DNA of 64,000 nucleotides from Myxococcota bacterium (GCA_030749415.1 JASMKC010000029.1:38827-102826), one strand, 5' to 3'. Numbered from the stretch's first letter, positions 54,830 to 63,156 are shown. Notes: generated by a model from the sequence alone, not told the origin. Numbers and translations are program-made.

Positions 54830-56122
54830 CTAGTTGCGGAGCGGCCGCCTTCGTTCGAAGCGAAAGGCTGCCCCGCGGCTGAGCTTCGCCAGCCGGAGCT
54901 CCTCGGGCATTTCCCGGGGCTCGGCGCCCGGGTCGATTTCCACGTTCCAGGCGAGTGTCCCGGTGTCGGGGCTCGCCACCGGCCGGCAGCGTGCCCTTGA
55001 ATTTACGCTTCCCGCGATGGCGTCGAGCGCTCGGTGGGGCGCCGCGTCGAGTCCCGCGAGCCAGGAGTACGGGTCTGCTTCCCGCAGCGCCGGGCAGTCG
55101 CGGATCGCAATGCGTGCGCTTCGCGACCCGGTGATTTCGATGCGGAAGTCCACATAGCTGCGCGGGTGGAAGCAGGGGTGGATCTGGAACACCTTGGCCA
55201 CTGCCTCGATGTCGTCGCCAGCGATGCCCATCGGTTCGCGGATCCGTTCCGCCGTGAGGGCCGCGGTGCCCGTCCACTGGGCCTCTGCCAGCTCGGTGGC
55301 CGCCGCAGTGTCCAGGCGTTGGGAAACAGCGAGCAAGAGCGACCGTGCCAACAGGTGGCTTTGCAGCGCGACCTCCCGGTTCACGCCGACGAGTGCCCGG
55401 TGTGAGAGATCCTCCAGCTGGAAGTCGGGGTCGAAAGGTCCCGAGTAGTCTGGCCAGCCGCCGGGCTCGCCGTCGTTCCCGGGCACTTCGATCGGAAGGC
55501 AGGCGGCTTTCGATGCTCGGACGCGTTCGAGGTTCGGGTGCTGCTCGTAAGGCTCGGCCTCATCGCCAATGAAGACCTTCCACCGGCAGTGGGGATGCCG
55601 GTCTGCCGGTGTGCGCGGCGGACGGTGGATCGGCCGCATCTTCATGCACGGATGGGTGGCGGCGGCTGTCGCATCAAAGGTCGGGTCTTCGATGTCGTGG
55701 CACATGAGCTTCACACTGGCCTCCCCGAAGGGCTCGACATCCATCAGAGCGCCGCAGTGCGCGAGCCAGAACTCGCCGTATTCGGGGCTGTCGAGGCGGA
55801 ACTGGAAGTCCATGAACTGTTGCGGCGCACCGATGTCGAGCTGGAGGTTCTTGAAGACCGTGCCGACGTCCCGGCCCTCGAACCCCAGGACCTTCTGCAT
55901 CCGGAGCGTGTAGATCGGGCTCGCCCCCATCCACTCCTCGACCGCACAATGGAAATAGGACTTGCCTCCGGAGTGCTTTGCGACGAGGGGGAGGCCGACG
56001 CGATCCTGGAGATGACCGTTCAGGAGATACTCGCGTCCCAGGTCGGCGAGGGCCTGGCGGGAAAAATCCGCAAGGCTGAGGTCGGGGTCGAAGCGGCCGG
56101 AATAGTCTTTGCGCAGCGCCAT
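54830..56122 (-). CDS. hypothetical protein with internal two-domain duplication
   Basis: 430 aa; DYSGRFDPDLSLADFS.. vs DYSGPFDPDFQLEDLS..; conserved Cys in both halves. Confidence 0.75.
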   Translation of the reverse strand: MALRKDYSGRFDPDLSLADFSRQALADLGREYLLNGHLQDRVGLPLVAKHSGGKSYFHCAVEEWMGASPIYTLRMQKVLGFEGRDVGTVFKNLQLDIGAPQQFMDFQFRLDSPEYGEFWLAHCGALMDVEPFGEASVKLMCHDIEDPTFDATAAATHPCMKMRPIHRPPRTPADRHPHCRWKVFIGDEAEPYEQHPNLERVRASKAACLPIEVPGNDGEPGGWPDYSGPFDPDFQLEDLSHRALVGVNREVALQSHLLARSLLLAVSQRLDTAAATELAEAQWTGTAALTAERIREPMGIAGDDIEAVAKVFQIHPCFHPRSYVDFRIEITGSRSARIAIRDCPALREADPYSWLAGLDAAPHRALDAIAGSVNSRARCRPVASPDTGTLAWNVEIDPGAEPREMPEELRLAKLSRGAAFRFERRRPLRN

Positions 56123-57095: not shown

Positions 57096-58418
57096 TCACT
57101 CGATTCCGAGCCGCTTCATCTTCTTGTGAAGTCCCTCGCGGGTGAGTCCGAGCCTGCGTGCGGTCGCGGCGCGCCGGCCCGCGTGACCGTCGAGCGCGCG
57201 CCGGATCAGAAATGCTTCGATGCGAGCGAGGGTCTCGCGGAGGGTGTCGCCCGGTTGGAGGTGAGCCTCCACGGGATCGAGGATTGCCCCGAGTCGTTCG
57301 GATAGATGCTGGGGCGTGAGCGTCTCGCCGGACTCGGCCATCGCAAGCGCGCGCTGGATCTCGTTCTCGAGTTCGCGAACATTGCCGGGCCAGTTATGCG
57401 AGAGCAGCAGCCGACATGCCTCGGGTGAGAGGTCGACGTTCGACTTGCCCTCTGTGGCGCCGTGGAATGCGAGGAAGTGGTGCGCAAGAGGGATCACATC
57501 CGTCGGGCGTTCGCGGAGCGGAGGCAGCGGGATCGGGAAAACCGCGAGCCGGTAGTAGAGATCTTCGCGAAAGCGCCCATCGACTGCGTCGCGGAGAAGG
57601 TTGCGGTTGCTCGCGGCCACGACGCGCACATCGATGTGCCGGCTGTGCGAGCCGCCGACCCGGCGCACCTCGCGCTCCTGGAGCGCGCGCAGCAGCTTGG
57701 CCTGGAAGGGGCCGGACGTTTCGCTCACCTCGTCGAGGAAGAGAGTGCCGCCGCCGGCCGCCTCGAAGAGCCCCACCTTGTCGCGGTCGGCGCCCGTGAA
57801 CGCTCCGCGCACGTGACCGAAGAGCTCACTCTCGAGCAGCGTGTCGGGAAACGCCGCGCAGTTGACAGCGACGAAGGCGCCGTCGCATCGGGGGCTCGCC
57901 TGGTGGATGGCTCGCGCCATCACCTCCTTGCCCGTGCCGGTCTCGCCCGACAGCAGCACGGTGGCGCGGGAGCGCGCGGCGACGGCGACGAGCCCGAGAG
58001 CCCGGGTCATGGCGGGTCCGGAGCCGATGATTTCAGAAAGGGCGGCACGCCGTGTCCGGCGCCGCACCCGAAACAGGTTCTCTACCTCGGCCAGGAGGTC
58101 GCGGTCCTCTCGGGATCCACCCCGAAGCACCACCTCGGCCGCGCCGGCGCTGCGGAGTTCGCCGCCGCGTTGGGCCTCGCGGGGCGCAAGGCGCACCAGC
58201 ACGGGCGCGTCGGTGGCCCGCTTGAGCTCCTTCAGGGCGCCCAGTGCCGTGTCGGCCCCGGTGTCGAGCACCACTGCGTGGAAGCCGTCGCGTGCGAGAC
58301 GGACACCCTGTGAGGCATCGCATTCCCAGACCACATCGAATGTAGGTGCCTCGCTCACAAGGTCGGCCAGGAACCGGCTGGCGGCTCCGATCCACAGCAC
58401 GCAACGAATCGATCCCAC
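57096..58418 (-). CDS. sigma54-dependent transcriptional activator (bEBP) with degenerate receiver domain
   Basis: [43 protein letters not shown]-terminal HTH; GTG 58418 with GGAG RBS. Confidence 0.92.
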
Positions 58419-58456
58419 GGTGCATCTCCGGCTTCCCCCCCGATCCCGGCACAGAG

Positions 58457-58472
58457 AGCAAGGTGCGTGCCG
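58457..58472 (-). promoter_or_regulatory. sigma54 (-24/-12) promoter of the bEBP gene
   Basis: Minus strand CGGCACG-CACC-TTGCT, correct GG-N10-GC spacing, about 40 nt upstream of the start. Confidence 0.65.
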
Positions 58473-58588
58473 CTGGAAGCGCACCGGAAGGCGCGTGAGT
58501 GCCCGGTGTAGCCAGAATCGGCCGGGTAGTGATCGCGGGCGGCCGGGTGTGAAGCTGTGGCGTGTGGACCCGGCCGATGGGGGTTCAC

Positions 58589-58636
58589 GCCGCCGGGATT
58601 CCGAACGGGGCCCTTCCGTGGGCCGCCGGGATCCGA
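58589..58636. repeat. direct repeat, candidate upstream activator sequence
   Basis: GCCGCCGGGATTCCGA (58589) and GCCGCCGGGATCCGA (58622), 33 bp apart, about 120-165 bp upstream of the sigma54 site. Confidence 0.35.
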
Positions 58637-58667
58637 CGCCACCCGCTGTCGGGTGCGACCCCTCGGA

Positions 58668-59009
58668 TCAGACGAGTGCTGCGTCCCCGCCGTCTCCGGT
58701 GCGGATGCACACTGCGTTGTTCACCGGCAGAACGAAGATTTTTCCATCACCGCTCGAGCCGGTTCGGGTCGCATCGCGCAGTTGCATGACGACCTTGTCC
58801 GCCAGGTCATCGGGCACGATGACCTCGATGAAAAGATTCGGTAGGGAATCAATTACGACTTCGGTGCCGCGGAAGAATTCACTATGGCCCTTTTGCCGGT
58901 TGAATTCCGTGACTTCGCTCACCGTCATGCCCGCCACGCTGAGTTCGCCGAGGGCTTGTTTCGCATCGTCGAGCTTGAACGGTTTGATGATGGCCTGGAC
59001 CTTCTTCAT
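58668..59009 (-). CDS. P-II family nitrogen regulator, non-canonical
   Basis: MKKVQAIIKPFKLDD, RQKG, TG..GDGKIF, IRTG; colinear with GlnB but key residues substituted; ATG 59009 with GGAG RBS. Confidence 0.9.
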   Translation of the reverse strand: MKKVQAIIKPFKLDDAKQALGELSVAGMTVSEVTEFNRQKGHSEFFRGTEVVIDSLPNLFIEVIVPDDLADKVVMQLRDATRTGSSGDGKIFVLPVNNAVCIRTGDGGDAALV

Positions 59010-59119
59010 GCCGTGTCTCCAGGTGGGATCAACTGCTTTCGCTTGCTGCAGATGCAAGAATGAAACCGGCCGGTCCATCTGTCGCATCCATCGAGCCTCT
59101 GGCTCTGGACGGGCGATCG

Positions 59120-59134
59120 GCAACAGCCGTGCCA
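59120..59134 (-). promoter_or_regulatory. sigma54 (-24/-12) promoter of the PII gene
   Basis: Minus strand TGGCACG-GCTG-TTGC, exact consensus match in the intergenic region. Confidence 0.78.
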
Positions 59135-59262
59135 TGGTCACAGGCGCCGGTTCGCGTGGATTCGTACACGCAAGCCGGACCCAGCGGACTCATCGAGCGA
59201 CGGGGAGTGGGGGGCTGCCCGGTGGCTTTGACTGTCTTTCCGTGACGTGTGCAGGCCACGCG

Positions 59263-59586
59263 TCAATCGATGTGCGCGGCGCTCTCGTGTTCCGCCCCGT
59301 TCTGTTCCTTCTCGGACGCGTGCGTGAGCCAGATCGGGTTGAGTCCGTGCTTGTCCATCTTGGCGTAGAGTGTGCGGCGGCCGATGCCGAGCAGGCGCGA
59401 GGCTGCGGAGCGGTTGCCGCTGGTTTCGCGCAATGCCTGGGCAATTCGCCACGCTTCGGCGAGCGCCACCCACTCGCGCAGCGAAAGCGGGCGACCCGCG
59501 TTGGCGCGGCGCGTCCTGGCCTCGAGCTCTGCCAGGCTGAGGGACTCGATCGCGACCTCGGAGTTGGGCCGGTGCGCGTAAGCCAT
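59263..59586 (-). CDS. stand-alone Fis-type helix-turn-helix protein
   Basis: 107 aa; EAWRIAQALRETSGNRSAASRLLGIGRRTLYAKMDKHGL is an HTH_8 domain; no AAA+ domain. Confidence 0.8.
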   Translation of the reverse strand: MAYAHRPNSEVAIESLSLAELEARTRRANAGRPLSLREWVALAEAWRIAQALRETSGNRSAASRLLGIGRRTLYAKMDKHGLNPIWLTHASEKEQNGAEHESAAHID

Positions 59587-59599
59587 CTCAAGCTTTTAG

Positions 59600-59615
59600 T
59601 GCAAGCTCCGTTCCA
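59600..59615 (-). promoter_or_regulatory. sigma54 (-24/-12) promoter of the Fis-like gene
   Basis: Minus strand TGGAACG-GAGC-TTGCA followed by AT-rich CTAAAAG; predicted +1 near 59589. Confidence 0.68.
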
Positions 59616-59862
59616 GGCTTCGGACACGCCGGAGAGTCTCTCGGGCGATCGAGAGTGCGCCGCTGCACGCGACGCGGGCAGACCTGCTCAACTCGTAGGC
59701 GGCGGCACGGCTCCCGGGCAGTCCTTCGTCCAGTGCCCCGGGGAAGCACTCGCCGAGGGGGGCAGAGGGTCTCGTGCATTTCCAATTGCCGCGGTGGTCT
59801 CGAGCCAGATTCTCCCAAAGTTCTGTTCGAGCCGCTGACCGAGCGGCCGGAGCCGGCGGGTG

Positions 59863-62800
59863 CTAGCGCTTCCACCAGAAACGGTGGAAGCGGTCACAGC
59901 CGAGTGGGCCGAAGTCGTCGCCCGGAATGCGGGTGCCTTCGGGCAGGTCGACGGGCTCCTGCCCGCGGAAGCGTTGGTCTGCGACGCCGTCGTGGTCGGC
60001 GTCCTCGTCCTGGTGGGTTGGCTGCCCGCTGGCGTCGTAGTAGATCGCGGCGTTCGGTTTGCGATTTTCGTTCGTATCGACCTCGAGCCGGACGATCGCG
60101 CCACCCTCGTACACGATCCGCTGATCCGCCACGCCGTTTCCGGTCGTGTCCGTCAGGACCTCCACGACAGTCCCATTCGCATCGACGTTGGCTCGTGTAT
60201 TCAGTCGCTTGCCGTCCTCGGACAGAGTGCATTGGGCCTCCACCACTCCGCCAGGGCCGAGCAGGAACTTCTTGTCGGGCTCGCTGCCGCTGCTCGCCAC
60301 CTCTTGGGCTGTCGCGTTTCCGGCTGCGTCGTAGTGGATCAGTGTGTTGGGACGGCCATTCCCGCTCGTGTCCTGACCCTGGCGCAGGATCACGCCATTC
60401 TCGAGGTACGTCCAGAGATCCGTCTTGCAGTTGCCGGTGGTGTCCTGGTAGCGGGCACGGACTTTTTCGTTGGCGTCGTACCACTCCTTCAGATCGGCGC
60501 AGCCGGCTCCCTTCGTGTCCTGTTCCAGACGAACGGGTTTCTCGTTTTCGAACCAGACTTTGAAATCGGGTTTTCCGTCTCCGGATCGGTCCTCGCGTCG
60601 ATCGAGCACCGTTCCGGCAGAATCGAGTACGATCCAGACGTCCGTCGTGCCGTCGCCGTTCGTATCCGCTTCCTGGGTCGAACGGCCGCCTTTCCCGCTC
60701 CGGCTCCGGAGATCCACCGTGCCGTCGAAATTCGAGTCCTGCTCCTGTCGCACGACGGTCTCGCCCTCGTACCAGGCGATGAGGTCGGCCTTGCCGTCCG
60801 CGTTGCGGTCCTTCTCGGTTCGCACCTTCCGGCCGGCTTCCAGATAGGTCACCGTCTCGAGCATTCCGTCCCGGTCGCTGTCTTCATCGATCTGGGTCGC
60901 GCGCTCCTCGGCGTCGAAAAGCGTGATGACGTCGATGCGTCCATCGAAATCCAGGTCCTCTTCCTGCCGCGACTTCTTGCCGCCGGTATAGGTGACGCTG
61001 AGATCCGATTTCCCATCGCCGTCCATGTCGGCGCTAGAACTCTGGGCCTGGCCATCGGAGAAGGCTGTCACCAGTTCGAAGCGGCCGTCAGCGTCCTCGT
61101 CGCTCTCCTCGCGTACGAGCACACCCGCCTCGTAGACCTTCACGAGGTCGGGCTTCTGGTCCGCGTTCTCGTCGAGCTCCTCCCGGGCGGGGCGTTCCTC
61201 GGCATCGAAGCGCACCACGACATCGGGCTTGCCGTCGCCGGTGGTGTCGCGTGTCTGCACGGCCTGCAGGCCGTCTTCGAATTCGATCACTGAGTCGTAT
61301 TGGCCGTCCCCGGTAGTGTCCTGTTGCTGCTTCACCCGCTCGTTGTCATCGAACGTGGTGATCACGTCGAACTTCCCGTCGCCTCGGGTGTCGCGCTCCT
61401 CCTTGGTCTTCTGGGCGCCGGCGTAGCTGGTGCGGACGTCGAACTTCCCGTCGCCGGTGGTGTCGCGTGCTTCTCGGGTGGTTTGCCCCGAAGGGTCGAG
61501 CTCGCCGCGCAGGTCGATGCGGCCGTCGAAATTGGTGTCCTCCTGGAACCGGTTCGCCACGCCGCCCTCGAAGTGGACGGTCCGATCCGGTTTCTCGTCT
61601 CCGTCGCGGTCCTCTTCGAGCTTCAGGGTCTCGCCGTTCGGGGCGTTGCTCTGCCATTCGTCGGGCTTTCCGTTTCCGTCCCGGTCCCGCCGGATGGTGC
61701 GCTCCTTTCCCGTCTCCGCATCGAGTGTTACCCAGGTGTCGACTGCGCCGTTGGAGTCCGAATCCTGTTCCTGGCTCGTCAAGGTGCCGTCCGCCGCGTA
61801 GTGGTTCCAGAGGTCGATCGAACCGTCGCCGCTTTCGTCGAGTTCCATCCGGGTGAGCTTGCCCGTTTCGAAGTGCTCGATCTGCGCCGCCTTGCCCGAT
61901 TTGCGTGAGATCGTGGTCCGGCGCTGGAGGCTGCCTCCGGCGTGGGCGTTGGCGATCTCGAAGTGCCCGTTCTTGTCCTCGTCGAGCTCTTCGAAGACGA
62001 GCGTGCCCTCGGAATCGAAGCGGTAGCGGGCGTCGGCCTTGCCGTCTCCATCCCGGTCCTCTTCCTGGCTGACTTTCGTTCCGTCCTGGTACTGGATCGT
62101 CGTGTCCTTGCTGCCGTCCAGGTTCGTGTCCGCTTCTCGAACCAGGGGATGCTCGCCGTCGTAACGCGTGACTACGTCCGACTTGCCATCGGCATTCTGG
62201 TCCTCCTCTTCTCGCACGCGGCGGCCGTCCGCGAAGAAGCGCACCAGGTCGGTCTTGCCGTCCTTTTTCGTGTCGAGCTCCTCGCGCTGCTTCGCGCCGG
62301 AGGCGTCGAGGTAGATGATCAGATCGACCATTCCGTCCGCGTCGGCGTCCTGGGTCTGGCGGCGCTCGGCACCGTCTTCGTAGTAGGCAACCGAATCGAA
62401 GCGCCCGTCAGCGGTGGTATCGGCTTCTTTCCGGTCGATGGTTCCGTTGCGGTAATGAGTGACGACATCGGGTTTCCCCGTACCCGTGGTGTCCTCTTCG
62501 ACGCGAACCTTGGCGCCGTTTTCGTAGTGGATCGCCACGTCGTACGCGCCGTCCTGCTTCGTGTCCTGCTTCTCCACTGTCTTGGCACCGCTCGCGTCGA
62601 ACTCGGCCCGGGTGTCCGGCTTGCCGTCTGCGTCGGTGTCGTCTTCCACGATGGAGACCTCGCCTTCGCGGTAGGTGACCCAGCGGTCGTCCTTCCCATC
62701 GAGGTTCGTGTCTTCTTCGAGGCGTGCGGCAATGCCGCCGTCGTAGTAGAGCTTCGAGTCGGGCTTTCCATCTGCGTTCCGGTCGTCCAGCTGGGAGGCG

Positions 62801-63156
62801 GGCTTGCCTTCCCGGTACTGGACCCAGCGGTCCTTGTTCCCGTCGCCGTCGATGTCGAATTCCTGGCGGCCGATCGTGGTGCCGTCTTTCTCGTAGAAAG
62901 TCCAGGTGTCGGCACGTCCATCGTGGTTGCTGTCGATGGCGGCGCGTTCGGGCTTGCCTTCGACGTAGTAGACGAATTGGTCGTGCTTGCAATCCTTGTT
63001 CGAGTCGAGGCGCTTTTCGGCGAGGTTCTCGAGCTCGTCGTACAGGAGCTCGACGGCGGGGCACCGCTGCTGCGCCTGCGCGGTGGCGGCGGCGAAGGAG
63101 AACGCGAAGACGGTGAAGAGTGCGTTAGCCCGCAAGCGGATTCGTAAACGTCGCAA
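59863..63156 (-). CDS. large secreted acidic repeat protein (~42 x 24-25 aa, DxDxDG loops)
   Basis: Signal peptide (..FAFSFAAATAQA), then repeats R.E.D.[ND].DG..D....[YF]..G; start uncertain (TTG 63156 or 63135). Confidence 0.85.
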   Translation of the reverse strand: MRRLRIRLRANALFTVFAFSFAAATAQAQQRCPAVELLYDELENLAEKRLDSNKDCKHDQFVYYVEGKPERAAIDSNHDGRADTWTFYEKDGTTIGRQEFDIDGDGNKDRWVQYREGKPASQLDDRNADGKPDSKLYYDGGIAARLEEDTNLDGKDDRWVTYREGEVSIVEDDTDADGKPDTRAEFDASGAKTVEKQDTKQDGAYDVAIHYENGAKVRVEEDTTGTGKPDVVTHYRNGTIDRKEADTTADGRFDSVAYYEDGAERRQTQDADADGMVDLIIYLDASGAKQREELDTKKDGKTDLVRFFADGRRVREEEDQNADGKSDVVTRYDGEHPLVREADTNLDGSKDTTIQYQDGTKVSQEEDRDGDGKADARYRFDSEGTLVFEELDEDKNGHFEIANAHAGGSLQRRTTISRKSGKAAQIEHFETGKLTRMELDESGDGSIDLWNHYAADGTLTSQEQDSDSNGAVDTWVTLDAETGKERTIRRDRDGNGKPDEWQSNAPNGETLKLEEDRDGDEKPDRTVHFEGGVANRFQEDTNFDGRIDLRGELDPSGQTTREARDTTGDGKFDVRTSYAGAQKTKEERDTRGDGKFDVITTFDDNERVKQQQDTTGDGQYDSVIEFEDGLQAVQTRDTTGDGKPDVVVRFDAEERPAREELDENADQKPDLVKVYEAGVLVREESDEDADGRFELVTAFSDGQAQSSSADMDGDGKSDLSVTYTGGKKSRQEEDLDFDGRIDVITLFDAEERATQIDEDSDRDGMLETVTYLEAGRKVRTEKDRNADGKADLIAWYEGETVVRQEQDSNFDGTVDLRSRSGKGGRSTQEADTNGDGTTDVWIVLDSAGTVLDRREDRSGDGKPDFKVWFENEKPVRLEQDTKGAGCADLKEWYDANEKVRARYQDTTGNCKTDLWTYLENGVILRQGQDTSGNGRPNTLIHYDAAGNATAQEVASSGSEPDKKFLLGPGGVVEAQCTLSEDGKRLNTRANVDANGTVVEVLTDTTGNGVADQRIVYEGGAIVRLEVDTNENRKPNAAIYYDASGQPTHQDEDADHDGVADQRFRGQEPVDLPEGTRIPGDDFGPLGCDRFHRFWWKR

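Follow-up and report, generated by a model that had tools for sequence, protein, structure and literature searches.

Where several regulatory genes stand in a row, each behind its own sigma54 promoter, the question arises whether they form one circuit or whether genes of separate histories have come to lie side by side. This question is raised by positions 57,096-59,615 of a 64,000-nt stretch of DNA from a Myxococcota bacterium (GCA_030749415.1 JASMKC010000029.1:38827-102826), which was analysed as a whole and is called the window below; its genome, G000, comprises 4.08 Mb at 66.5% GC. The locus encodes a Fis-like helix-turn-helix (HTH) protein, a PII protein and a bacterial enhancer-binding protein (bEBP), which a first-pass annotation, made from the sequence alone, had joined into a self-contained feedback circuit. 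Comparison with relatives suggests a different answer: the locus is probably, though far from certainly, the remnant of a nitrogen operon that has lost amtB, in which a putatively leaderless Fis-like gene and an orphan GlnK, degenerating or retargeted, remain beside an independently conserved pseudo-receiver bEBP with a sigma54 promoter of its own. The three genes are as follows.

59263-59586, minus strand: Fis-like HTH gene (fis), 107 aa, Pfam HTH_8 at 4.5e-13.
58668-59009, minus strand: PII gene, 113 aa, Pfam P-II at 82.6 bits.
57096-58418, minus strand: bEBP gene, 440 aa, GTG start with GGAG ahead of it, Pfam Sigma54_activat at 222 bits plus HTH_8.

In the gap upstream of each gene, and facing it, lies a sigma54 motif, all three with the spacing GG-N10-GC.

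59600-59615, minus strand: sigma54 -24/-12 promoter of fis, TGGAACGGAGCTTGCA, with 14 nt from the C of the -12 GC to the ATG.
59119-59134, minus strand: sigma54 promoter, now ahead of the PII gene, TGGCACGGCTGTTGCC, the positional equivalent of the amtB promoter of relatives.
58457-58472, minus strand: sigma54 promoter of the bEBP gene, CGGCACGCACCTTGCT.

These motifs stand up well to scoring against the genome background. By a consensus count over 12 positions (TGGCACG-N4-TTGCW) on both strands, each of them scores 11/12, a level of at least 11/12 is reached by only 40 sites in the 4.08 Mb, and these three fall inside 1.15 kb on one strand. The exact form GGCACG-N4-TTGC occurs twice in the window against 0.24 expected, a count reached in 3 of 100 shuffles; with one mismatch allowed, no window-wide enrichment was found (7 sites against 7.71 expected). 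The machinery is encoded as well, with rpoN at C12:40824-41300 (203.6 bits) and about 16 genome matches to the NtrC model that span its central AAA+ part and mark bEBPs. A scan for sigma70-type promoters gave 0 sites, a terminator scan gave one site, on the plus strand only, and an Rfam scan gave nothing close to the gathering score. Furthermore, the motifs are conserved. In the bEBP promoter set, the window and 19 relatives that represent several families of the order, 20/20 loci have GGCAY-N5-TTGC at a distance of 42-66 nt ahead of the aligned start; the motif GG[ACT]A[CT]-N5-T[TC]GC precedes the Fis-like gene at 21 of 30 loci, mostly in the window's unusual form GGAAC; and the counterpart of the PII site, found as the amtB promoter of relatives, is matched by regular expression in 4/5 fis-amtB intergenic regions, the fifth being a near match.

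The linkage of the three genes, whose absence from relatives the first-pass annotation had named as a ground for refutation, largely fails in relatives. Among the bEBP loci of 19 relatives, taken with 1.5 kb on each side, a PII gene is present in one, that of G002, and a Fis-like gene in none, the apparent 'fis' matches being the bEBP's own HTH; the bEBP gene is unlinked to both in 18/19. Conversely, among 30 Fis-like loci only the window's contains the bEBP gene. A related order recurs within the same family, in genus g14 (G015, G065, G066), where a gene here called big is followed by a luciferase-like oxidoreductase, fis, a canonical PII gene and, after 2 to 6 kb, the bEBP gene; in G025, fis and the bEBP gene are 14 kb apart. 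Since this order in g14 and G002 stands against unlinked loci in the rest, the neighbourhood appears to have been handed down in some members of a single family and disrupted in the remaining genomes. In G001, of the window's own genus, a GDSL-type hydrolase lies between big and the bEBP gene, and no Fis-like match was obtained in that genome at E<=1e-12. In length, the 1.47-kb gap between big and the bEBP gene in G001 (L091 7472-8644, with the GDSL-like hydrolase) comes close to the stretch taken up by fis and PII in the window, which points to a fast turnover of what stands ahead of the bEBP gene.

The origin of the fis-PII pair is suggested by another member of the genus. In G002, where genes were identified by Pfam on all long open reading frames (ORFs), the order runs big, one unassigned gene, fis, the motif TGGCACGCGAGTTGCT, a leader of about 110 nt, amtB, glnK and the bEBP gene. 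The window has the same gene frame minus amtB. The earlier statement that no histidine kinase, amtB or glnA is adjacent holds for the window (none was found by a Pfam scan of the neighbour proteins), although as regards amtB it reflects a recent loss, given that G002 has this gene between fis and PII. The arrangement fis-amtB-(PII) is found in further genera and families (L054, L060, L063, L065), and because it recurs there with a sigma54 motif in 4/5 spacers, amtB is read as lost in the window and not as gained in G002. The only amtB of the genome lies on contig C12; the window PII gene has no link to it, while the G002 orthologue stands beside its own amtB. The junction itself fits a deletion, and involves the following feature.

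59010-59108, minus strand: 5' leader of the PII gene, about 100 nt, with inferred transcription start, ending in CTGGAGACACGGC before the ATGAAG start.

The leader of the window PII gene ends in CTGGAG-N7-ATGAAG. The combination of CTGGAG, a spacer and ATGAAG or GTGAAA is common to the amtB leaders of L055, L060 and L063, while the region upstream of the G002 glnK differs. Both amtB and glnK of G002 start with ATGAAG, and for this reason a deletion from start codon to start codon would give exactly the junction seen in the window. The ancestor would accordingly have carried a second nitrogen operon of a type widespread in the order, namely fis, a sigma54 promoter with leader, amtB and glnK; the amtB coding sequence would then have been deleted in the window lineage, apparently from start codon to start codon, so that the promoter, leader and ribosome-binding site of amtB would now drive glnK directly.

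The fate of the PII protein is consistent with such a history. It matches the Pfam P-II model at positions 1-101 of 102 (cut-off 25 bits). In a six-frame search of the genome with this model it scores 81.9 bits and the two other PII genes 118 and 108, and it stays below the cut-offs of the NCBIfam PII equivalogs (128.3 against 202 and 110.8 against 181). A tree of 13 rows places it as sister to the G002 GlnK with a support of 95/92; its terminal branch, at 0.51, is about 12 times as long as that of G002 (0.043). Ten substitutions at columns invariant in the 12 other PII proteins are unique to it (G35E, G37N, L45F, Y46F, A49T, Y51V, V53I, K58N, I86S, R101C), seven of them in the T-loop; the other rows show at most four such departures each, and loss of Tyr51, Lys58, Gly35/37 and Arg101 is confined to the window protein. 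The G002 GlnK is canonical (GFGRQKGH, Tyr46, Tyr51, Lys58, Arg101). The T-loop of PII enters the pore of AmtB, bears Tyr51, at which PII is uridylylated, and shapes the site for ATP and 2-oxoglutarate jointly with Lys58, Gly37 and Arg101; several of the residues lost here hold ATP, Mg and 2-oxoglutarate. Released from AmtB, the window PII would have shed the T-loop tyrosines and several effector-site residues, and since those tyrosines are gone, the GlnD encoded in the genome (664 bits, over the cut-off) could not uridylylate it at Tyr51. The description of this PII as degenerate is well borne out in these respects. It is nevertheless no obvious pseudogene: the B-loop TGxxGDGKIF survives, as do R38, Q39, R47 and R103, its 113 codons form an uninterrupted frame, and the ratio of non-synonymous to synonymous substitution rates (dN/dS) against G002 is 0.19, a value to be read with a dS of about 1, near saturation. 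Because the frame is intact and selection is purifying overall, the protein would be either slowly decaying or retargeted. GC content at third codon positions (GC3), at 0.72, is the lowest of the locus (neighbours 0.79-0.85), while the G002 gene, at 0.92, has the highest value, and the window gene is altered and probably less used.

Nitrogen functions are otherwise well represented in the genome, which keeps a second amtB-glnK pair on C12 and a glnB-type PII gene on C30. Both of these PII loci (C30:8458-8546; C12:50377) lie behind sigma54 motifs scoring 11/12. The amtB-linked PII on C12 (G000:C12:48623-48958) has a branch of 0.46 and a GC3 of 0.74, yet its T-loop and effector residues are kept. 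In addition, an NtrB-like and an NtrC-like gene stand together on C75, both full length and just under the equivalog cut-offs.

A second line of evidence may tie fis to this nitrogen regulon and not to the bEBP.

59675-59690, minus strand: imperfect palindrome, TGAGCAGGTCTGCCCG; the fis promoter follows with its -24 GG 76 nt downstream.

The corresponding box, TGNGCA-N3-5-TGCNCA, was found upstream of fis orthologues in 6/20 cases in strict form and in 11/20 in loose form (the window among the latter), as against 0/20 for bEBP promoters. The pattern was set after inspection of the sequences, in which 8-mers common to several promoters had served as a lead only, so that these counts overstate its significance, although the contrast with the bEBP set is still clear. 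Of the 18 places in the genome with the strict box, one belongs to the glnB-type PII gene on C30 (G000:C30:8458-8546), where a perfect palindrome copy, TGAGCAGCCGCTGCCCA, stands 73 nt ahead of the 11/12 sigma54 motif. The promoter of the window PII gene is accompanied by a half-box only (GGGCAGCC). On this pattern, 59675-59690 is a candidate enhancer or operator of a nitrogen regulon, and the NtrB/NtrC-like pair on C75 offers the obvious candidates to act at it. Under nitrogen limitation, this distant pair may switch on fis and PII, acting at the 16-bp palindrome that lies about 70-150 nt upstream of fis and is common to the glnB promoter, and a dimer of the Fis-like protein may bind or bend the enhancer DNA and thereby modulate the activation.

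The Fis-like protein itself belongs to a family that is widespread in one lineage. Its HTH_8 score is 49.1 bits (Pfam cut-off 22), and the family profile aligns with Fis residues 23-97 (E 3.4e-4) and also with the DNA-binding domains of NtrC, ZraR and FleQ. The AlphaFold2 (AF2) model has four helices at a mean confidence (pLDDT) of 79, and its top fold matches are Fis and the DNA-binding domains of NtrC1 and NtrC4. Scores with the two NCBIfam Fis equivalogs, 20.5 and 24.3 bits, are far from the cut-offs of 99 and 122, and the protein is not classed as Fis proper. The gene is present in single copy in 147/193 genomes of an uncultured order of Myxococcota, and in 87/101 of the high-quality ones; the record titles of relatives that carry it mostly name Myxococcota or 'Deltaproteobacteria' metagenome-assembled genomes (MAGs). 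A PII gene lies within 1.5 kb of it at 14 of the 30 loci, amtB at 6, glnA at 7 and a gene for a BBP2 porin at 13; one or more of the four occur at 27/30, the other three loci being short. To judge from these neighbourhoods, the protein appears to be a stand-alone DNA-binding domain of the Fis/NtrC type and a core member of the nitrogen gene neighbourhood of the order. The BBP2/OmpL-like beta-barrel porin adjoins the gene, mostly convergently, at 13/30 loci (L056, L057, L061, L064, L070-L076, L080, L082) and may be under nitrogen control. Within this genome, the closest paralogue of the Fis-like protein is not the DNA-binding domain of the bEBP beside it. A complex prediction for the canonical PII trimer of G065 with its Fis-like neighbour, run with alignments for each, returned a score of 0.02 against a mark of 0.32, with no verdict from the tool, and has no bearing on whether the two bind.

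The spacing of the fis promoter is unusual in its own right. Sigma54 promoters start transcription about 11-13 nt past the GC, and the ATG of fis lies 14 nt past it, so the fis mRNA would have a leader of a few nt at most. The ATG at 59586 must be the start used, since the frame is closed by TAA 9 nt upstream of it and a start at the only later codon would leave out L36 and W39, residues invariant in the family. The same arrangement prevails among relatives, where 17 of the 21 motif-bearing loci have their first in-frame start 13-17 nt after the -12 GC. As far as spacing can tell, then, the fis promoter implies a leaderless or nearly leaderless mRNA. At the level of abstracts, a literature search gave nothing on leaderless transcripts from sigma54 promoters, and the mentions of 'leaderless' in passages of PMC3333780 are unrelated to sigma54.

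The third gene has a different history, and its product divides into two parts.

58026-58418, minus strand: N-terminal pseudo-receiver of the bEBP with a long helix alpha5 (AF2 and Foldseek).
57096-58025, minus strand: AAA+ sigma54-interaction domain, lid and C-terminal HTH_8 of the bEBP (Pfam).

The activator part is typical, with Pfam matches to Sigma54_activat (4.4e-66), AAA_lid_14 (3.7e-20) and HTH_8 (5.7e-9, 36 bits), and with GAFTGA and the Walker A motif GETGTGKE visible in the translation; its best solved relatives are ZraR, NifA, FlrC, LuxO and FleQ, and its central domain scores best with the NCBIfam models of NorR and NifA. Residues 1-124 gave no match in Pfam or NCBIfam, and no Response_reg at E<=0.01. 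The AF2 model of this region, built on a 20-row alignment, has (beta-alpha)5 topology at a pLDDT of 88, and the top Foldseek matches are receiver domains (PmrA, BfmR, CpxR and others) with template-modelling (TM) scores of 0.63-0.77 at 15-26% identity. With the phosphorylation residues mapped by motif and by the strands of the model, the fold is seen to be without the acidic pair after beta1 (WIGAAS), the Thr/Ser ending beta4 (VLVRLA) and the Lys after beta5 (VVLRG), while the Asp ending beta3 is kept in 16/20 orthologues. Judged by this model, 'pseudo-receiver' is a fair name, and the first-pass annotation was right to use it. Full-length orthologues including the N-terminal domain occur across the order at 50-68% identity, in about 90 genomes by tally. 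The flanks of 16 orthologues include no histidine kinase and are mutually unrelated, holding a GDSL hydrolase, DUF1329 and PIN proteins, dehydrogenases, a porin, a CoA-transferase and others. The bEBP would thus seem to be a separate, order-wide regulator with a non-phosphorylatable receiver fold and no partner kinase, activated by itself or by another activator, and placed beside fis and PII only through local gene order. Its promoter may have an upstream element of its own.

58509-58523, minus strand: candidate upstream element of the bEBP promoter, GGCCGATTCTGGCTA.

The pattern GGCCR-N2-8-YGGCYA, defined post hoc, occurs upstream of 8/20 bEBP orthologues and in 5/200 background pieces, and within the window's locus it lies only ahead of the bEBP promoter and not upstream of fis or PII; as a promoter element, 58509-58523 is a weak candidate.

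Sequence of the organism is also present in RNA libraries. In X1 and X2, which share a sample, there are contigs identical in sequence to 59052-59619, 58662-58864 and 58640-58790, covering fis, the spacer between fis and PII and the 3' part of PII; X3, from a different study, has such contigs for 57845-57995 and 58047-58197, both parts of the bEBP gene. These are assembled contigs with a depth of 2-10, which place the organism's sequence in the libraries, give neither starts, strands nor levels and, DNA carry-over being possible, do not prove transcription; no meaning attaches to the parts that they leave uncovered, 58865-59051 and most of the bEBP gene. Record 5 of X1 extends 33 nt beyond the fis ATG on its upstream side, spanning the promoter.

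With this evidence in hand, the reading as an amtB-less remnant beside an unrelated activator can be weighed against others. In the circuit first proposed, the bEBP would fire its own promoter and those of fis and PII, and the remodelled PII would bind the pseudo-receiver and replace phosphorylation as its input. The clustering of three sigma54 promoters within 1.15 kb, the receiver fold devoid of phosphorylation residues with no kinase nearby, the continued constraint on the PII ORF and the remodelling of the T-loop only in the lineage whose PII gene lies 250 nt upstream of the bEBP gene would all suit it. Yet the bEBP with its pseudo-receiver is found in about 90 genomes, mostly with no adjacent PII or fis gene; the PII at the same place in G002 is a canonical GlnK with amtB, so that the pairing would be very recent; and the box upstream of fis is common to glnB and not to the bEBP promoter, whose candidate element is in turn absent upstream of fis and PII. 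With the NtrB/NtrC-like pair and GlnD encoded elsewhere, one self-contained module finds no support, and the circuit is judged highly improbable. Hardly better placed is a related reading, in which the freed GlnK has been retargeted and its remodelled T-loop binds the pseudo-receiver of the bEBP or the Fis-like protein, giving a PII-gated sigma54 circuit; this, too, is regarded as very improbable. An improbable alternative of wider scope holds that the bEBP is a NifA-like, kinase-less, PII-controlled nitrogen activator of the order, on which any PII could act by way of the pseudo-receiver; that it recurs downstream of fis-PII in two genera would then be a consequence of this role. The order big, fis, (amtB), PII, bEBP in G000, G002, G065, G015 and G066, the 14-kb distance between fis and the bEBP gene in G025, the lack of a linked kinase in 16 flanks and the best central-domain scores with NorR and NifA agree with it; however, with the exception of G025 all of these genomes come from a single family and can have inherited the order, the bEBP gene lies elsewhere in other genera and families, bEBP promoters are without the nitrogen box, and a full-length NtrB/NtrC-like pair exists.

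A further alternative concerns the PII gene alone, which might be dying, functionless since the loss of amtB and open only for lack of time. The long branch, the loss of invariant residues, the lowest GC3 of its locus against the highest in G002 and the two canonical PII genes kept in the genome speak for this; the intact frame, the low dN/dS, the retained B-loop and arginine and glutamine residues, the strong sigma54 promoter and ribosome-binding site and the identical sequence in RNA libraries speak against it, and it is considered unlikely, if less so than the circuits above. The reading as an amtB-less nitrogen operon remnant with a separate bEBP has its own weak points. A dN/dS of 0.19 speaks against simple decay, and in genus g14 fis abuts a canonical PII gene in the absence of amtB, so that loss of amtB alone does not force PII to decay. 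The direction of the amtB change rests on parsimony over few genomes. The palindrome and the likeness of the leaders are short and were found post hoc, the half-box leaves control of the PII promoter by the same enhancer putative and unproven, and X1 record 5 fits read-through or DNA carry-over and not a clean start. Finally, the order in g14 and the distance in G025 may allow a looser functional link between nitrogen genes and the bEBP.

Set beside known systems, the locus resembles several and coincides with none. The enteric and proteobacterial glnK-amtB operons under NtrC and sigma54 likewise place a GlnK-type PII behind a sigma54 promoter with a palindromic box; amtB lies directly upstream of glnK in G002, and the window's genome has genes for GlnD and for an NtrB/NtrC-like pair. 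In the window, however, amtB is deleted and the promoter and leader of the channel gene drive PII alone, this PII is without Tyr51, Tyr46, Lys58, Gly35/37 and Arg101, and a Fis-like gene heads the cluster. The Fis-like protein shares with Fis and with the C-terminal DNA-binding domain of the NtrC family (HTH_8) its four-helix architecture, a profile match and the same fold matches, whereas the match to Fis begins at residue 23, with no counterpart of the N-terminal beta-hairpin arm matched, its own N-terminus is variable and modelled at low confidence, and its gene lies behind a putative leaderless sigma54 promoter inside nitrogen-assimilation clusters of Myxococcota MAGs. Like NifA controlled by PII through GlnB or NifL, the bEBP is a sigma54 activator that has no working phosphorylation input and adjoins a PII gene; NifA, unlike it, senses via a GAF domain in place of a receiver fold, and only in a few related genomes does PII adjoin the bEBP gene. 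FleQ, with its atypical, non-phosphorylated receiver, is similar in having a receiver fold without an acidic pocket followed by AAA+ and HTH_8 domains, but the N-terminal domains share no sequence similarity (matches begin near residue 111-130), no FleN-like partner or flagellar context was seen at the locus, and the bEBP's own promoter is of the sigma54 type in all 20 orthologues.

The surroundings complete the picture of the locus. On the minus strand the gene order of the window is TonB-like, big, Fis-like, PII, bEBP, DJ-1/PfpI, a 430-aa protein and enoyl-CoA hydratase, and Pfam also places a poly(A) polymerase/CCA-type enzyme among the neighbours.

59863-63120, minus strand: big, secreted FG-GAP/adhesin-like repeat protein of about 1,100 aa with weak FG-GAP matches.

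This gene lies directly 3' of the TonB-like gene; its product matches the NCBIfam Lsa25.6 adhesin-like family at 84 bits, under the cut-off, and no sigma54 motif was seen upstream of it. It precedes the bEBP gene in G000, G001, G002, G065, G186 and G192 (L091 4152-7424; L090 130-1932) and is the only recurrent neighbour of the latter. Directly upstream of the bEBP orthologue of G065 (L090 4743-5843) lies a 366-aa ORF that matches no Pfam family and has a Walker-A-like GPKRAGKT. The 430-aa protein (54830-56122, minus strand) matches no Pfam or NCBIfam family and contains an internal duplication, residues 1-174 against 225-385, with about 28% identity in the self-match.

Altogether, the locus provides a worked example of a plausible regulatory module that dissolves on comparison with relatives: the promoters are real, and they belong to two genes of a nitrogen regulon and an unrelated neighbour. 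As a variant of known nitrogen and sigma54 regulation, it is of interest mainly for the family of Fis-like proteins, for the putatively leaderless transcription of their gene from a sigma54 promoter and for the occurrence of GlnK in a canonical and an orphan form. Literature searches gave no description of such a Fis-like protein or of a Fis-like gene in amtB/glnK clusters, and nothing relevant on the combination of a leaderless transcript with a sigma54 promoter; a protein resembling the DNA-binding domain of Fis and NtrC, with no described counterpart in that literature, appears to be central to the nitrogen clusters of a whole uncultured order of Myxococcota. Retargeting of the window GlnK, if true, would show a PII sensor in the act of acquiring a new target. 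The canonical GlnK beside amtB in G002 and the orphan, T-loop-degenerate GlnK in the window's genome together constitute a natural experiment on the conservation of PII residues.

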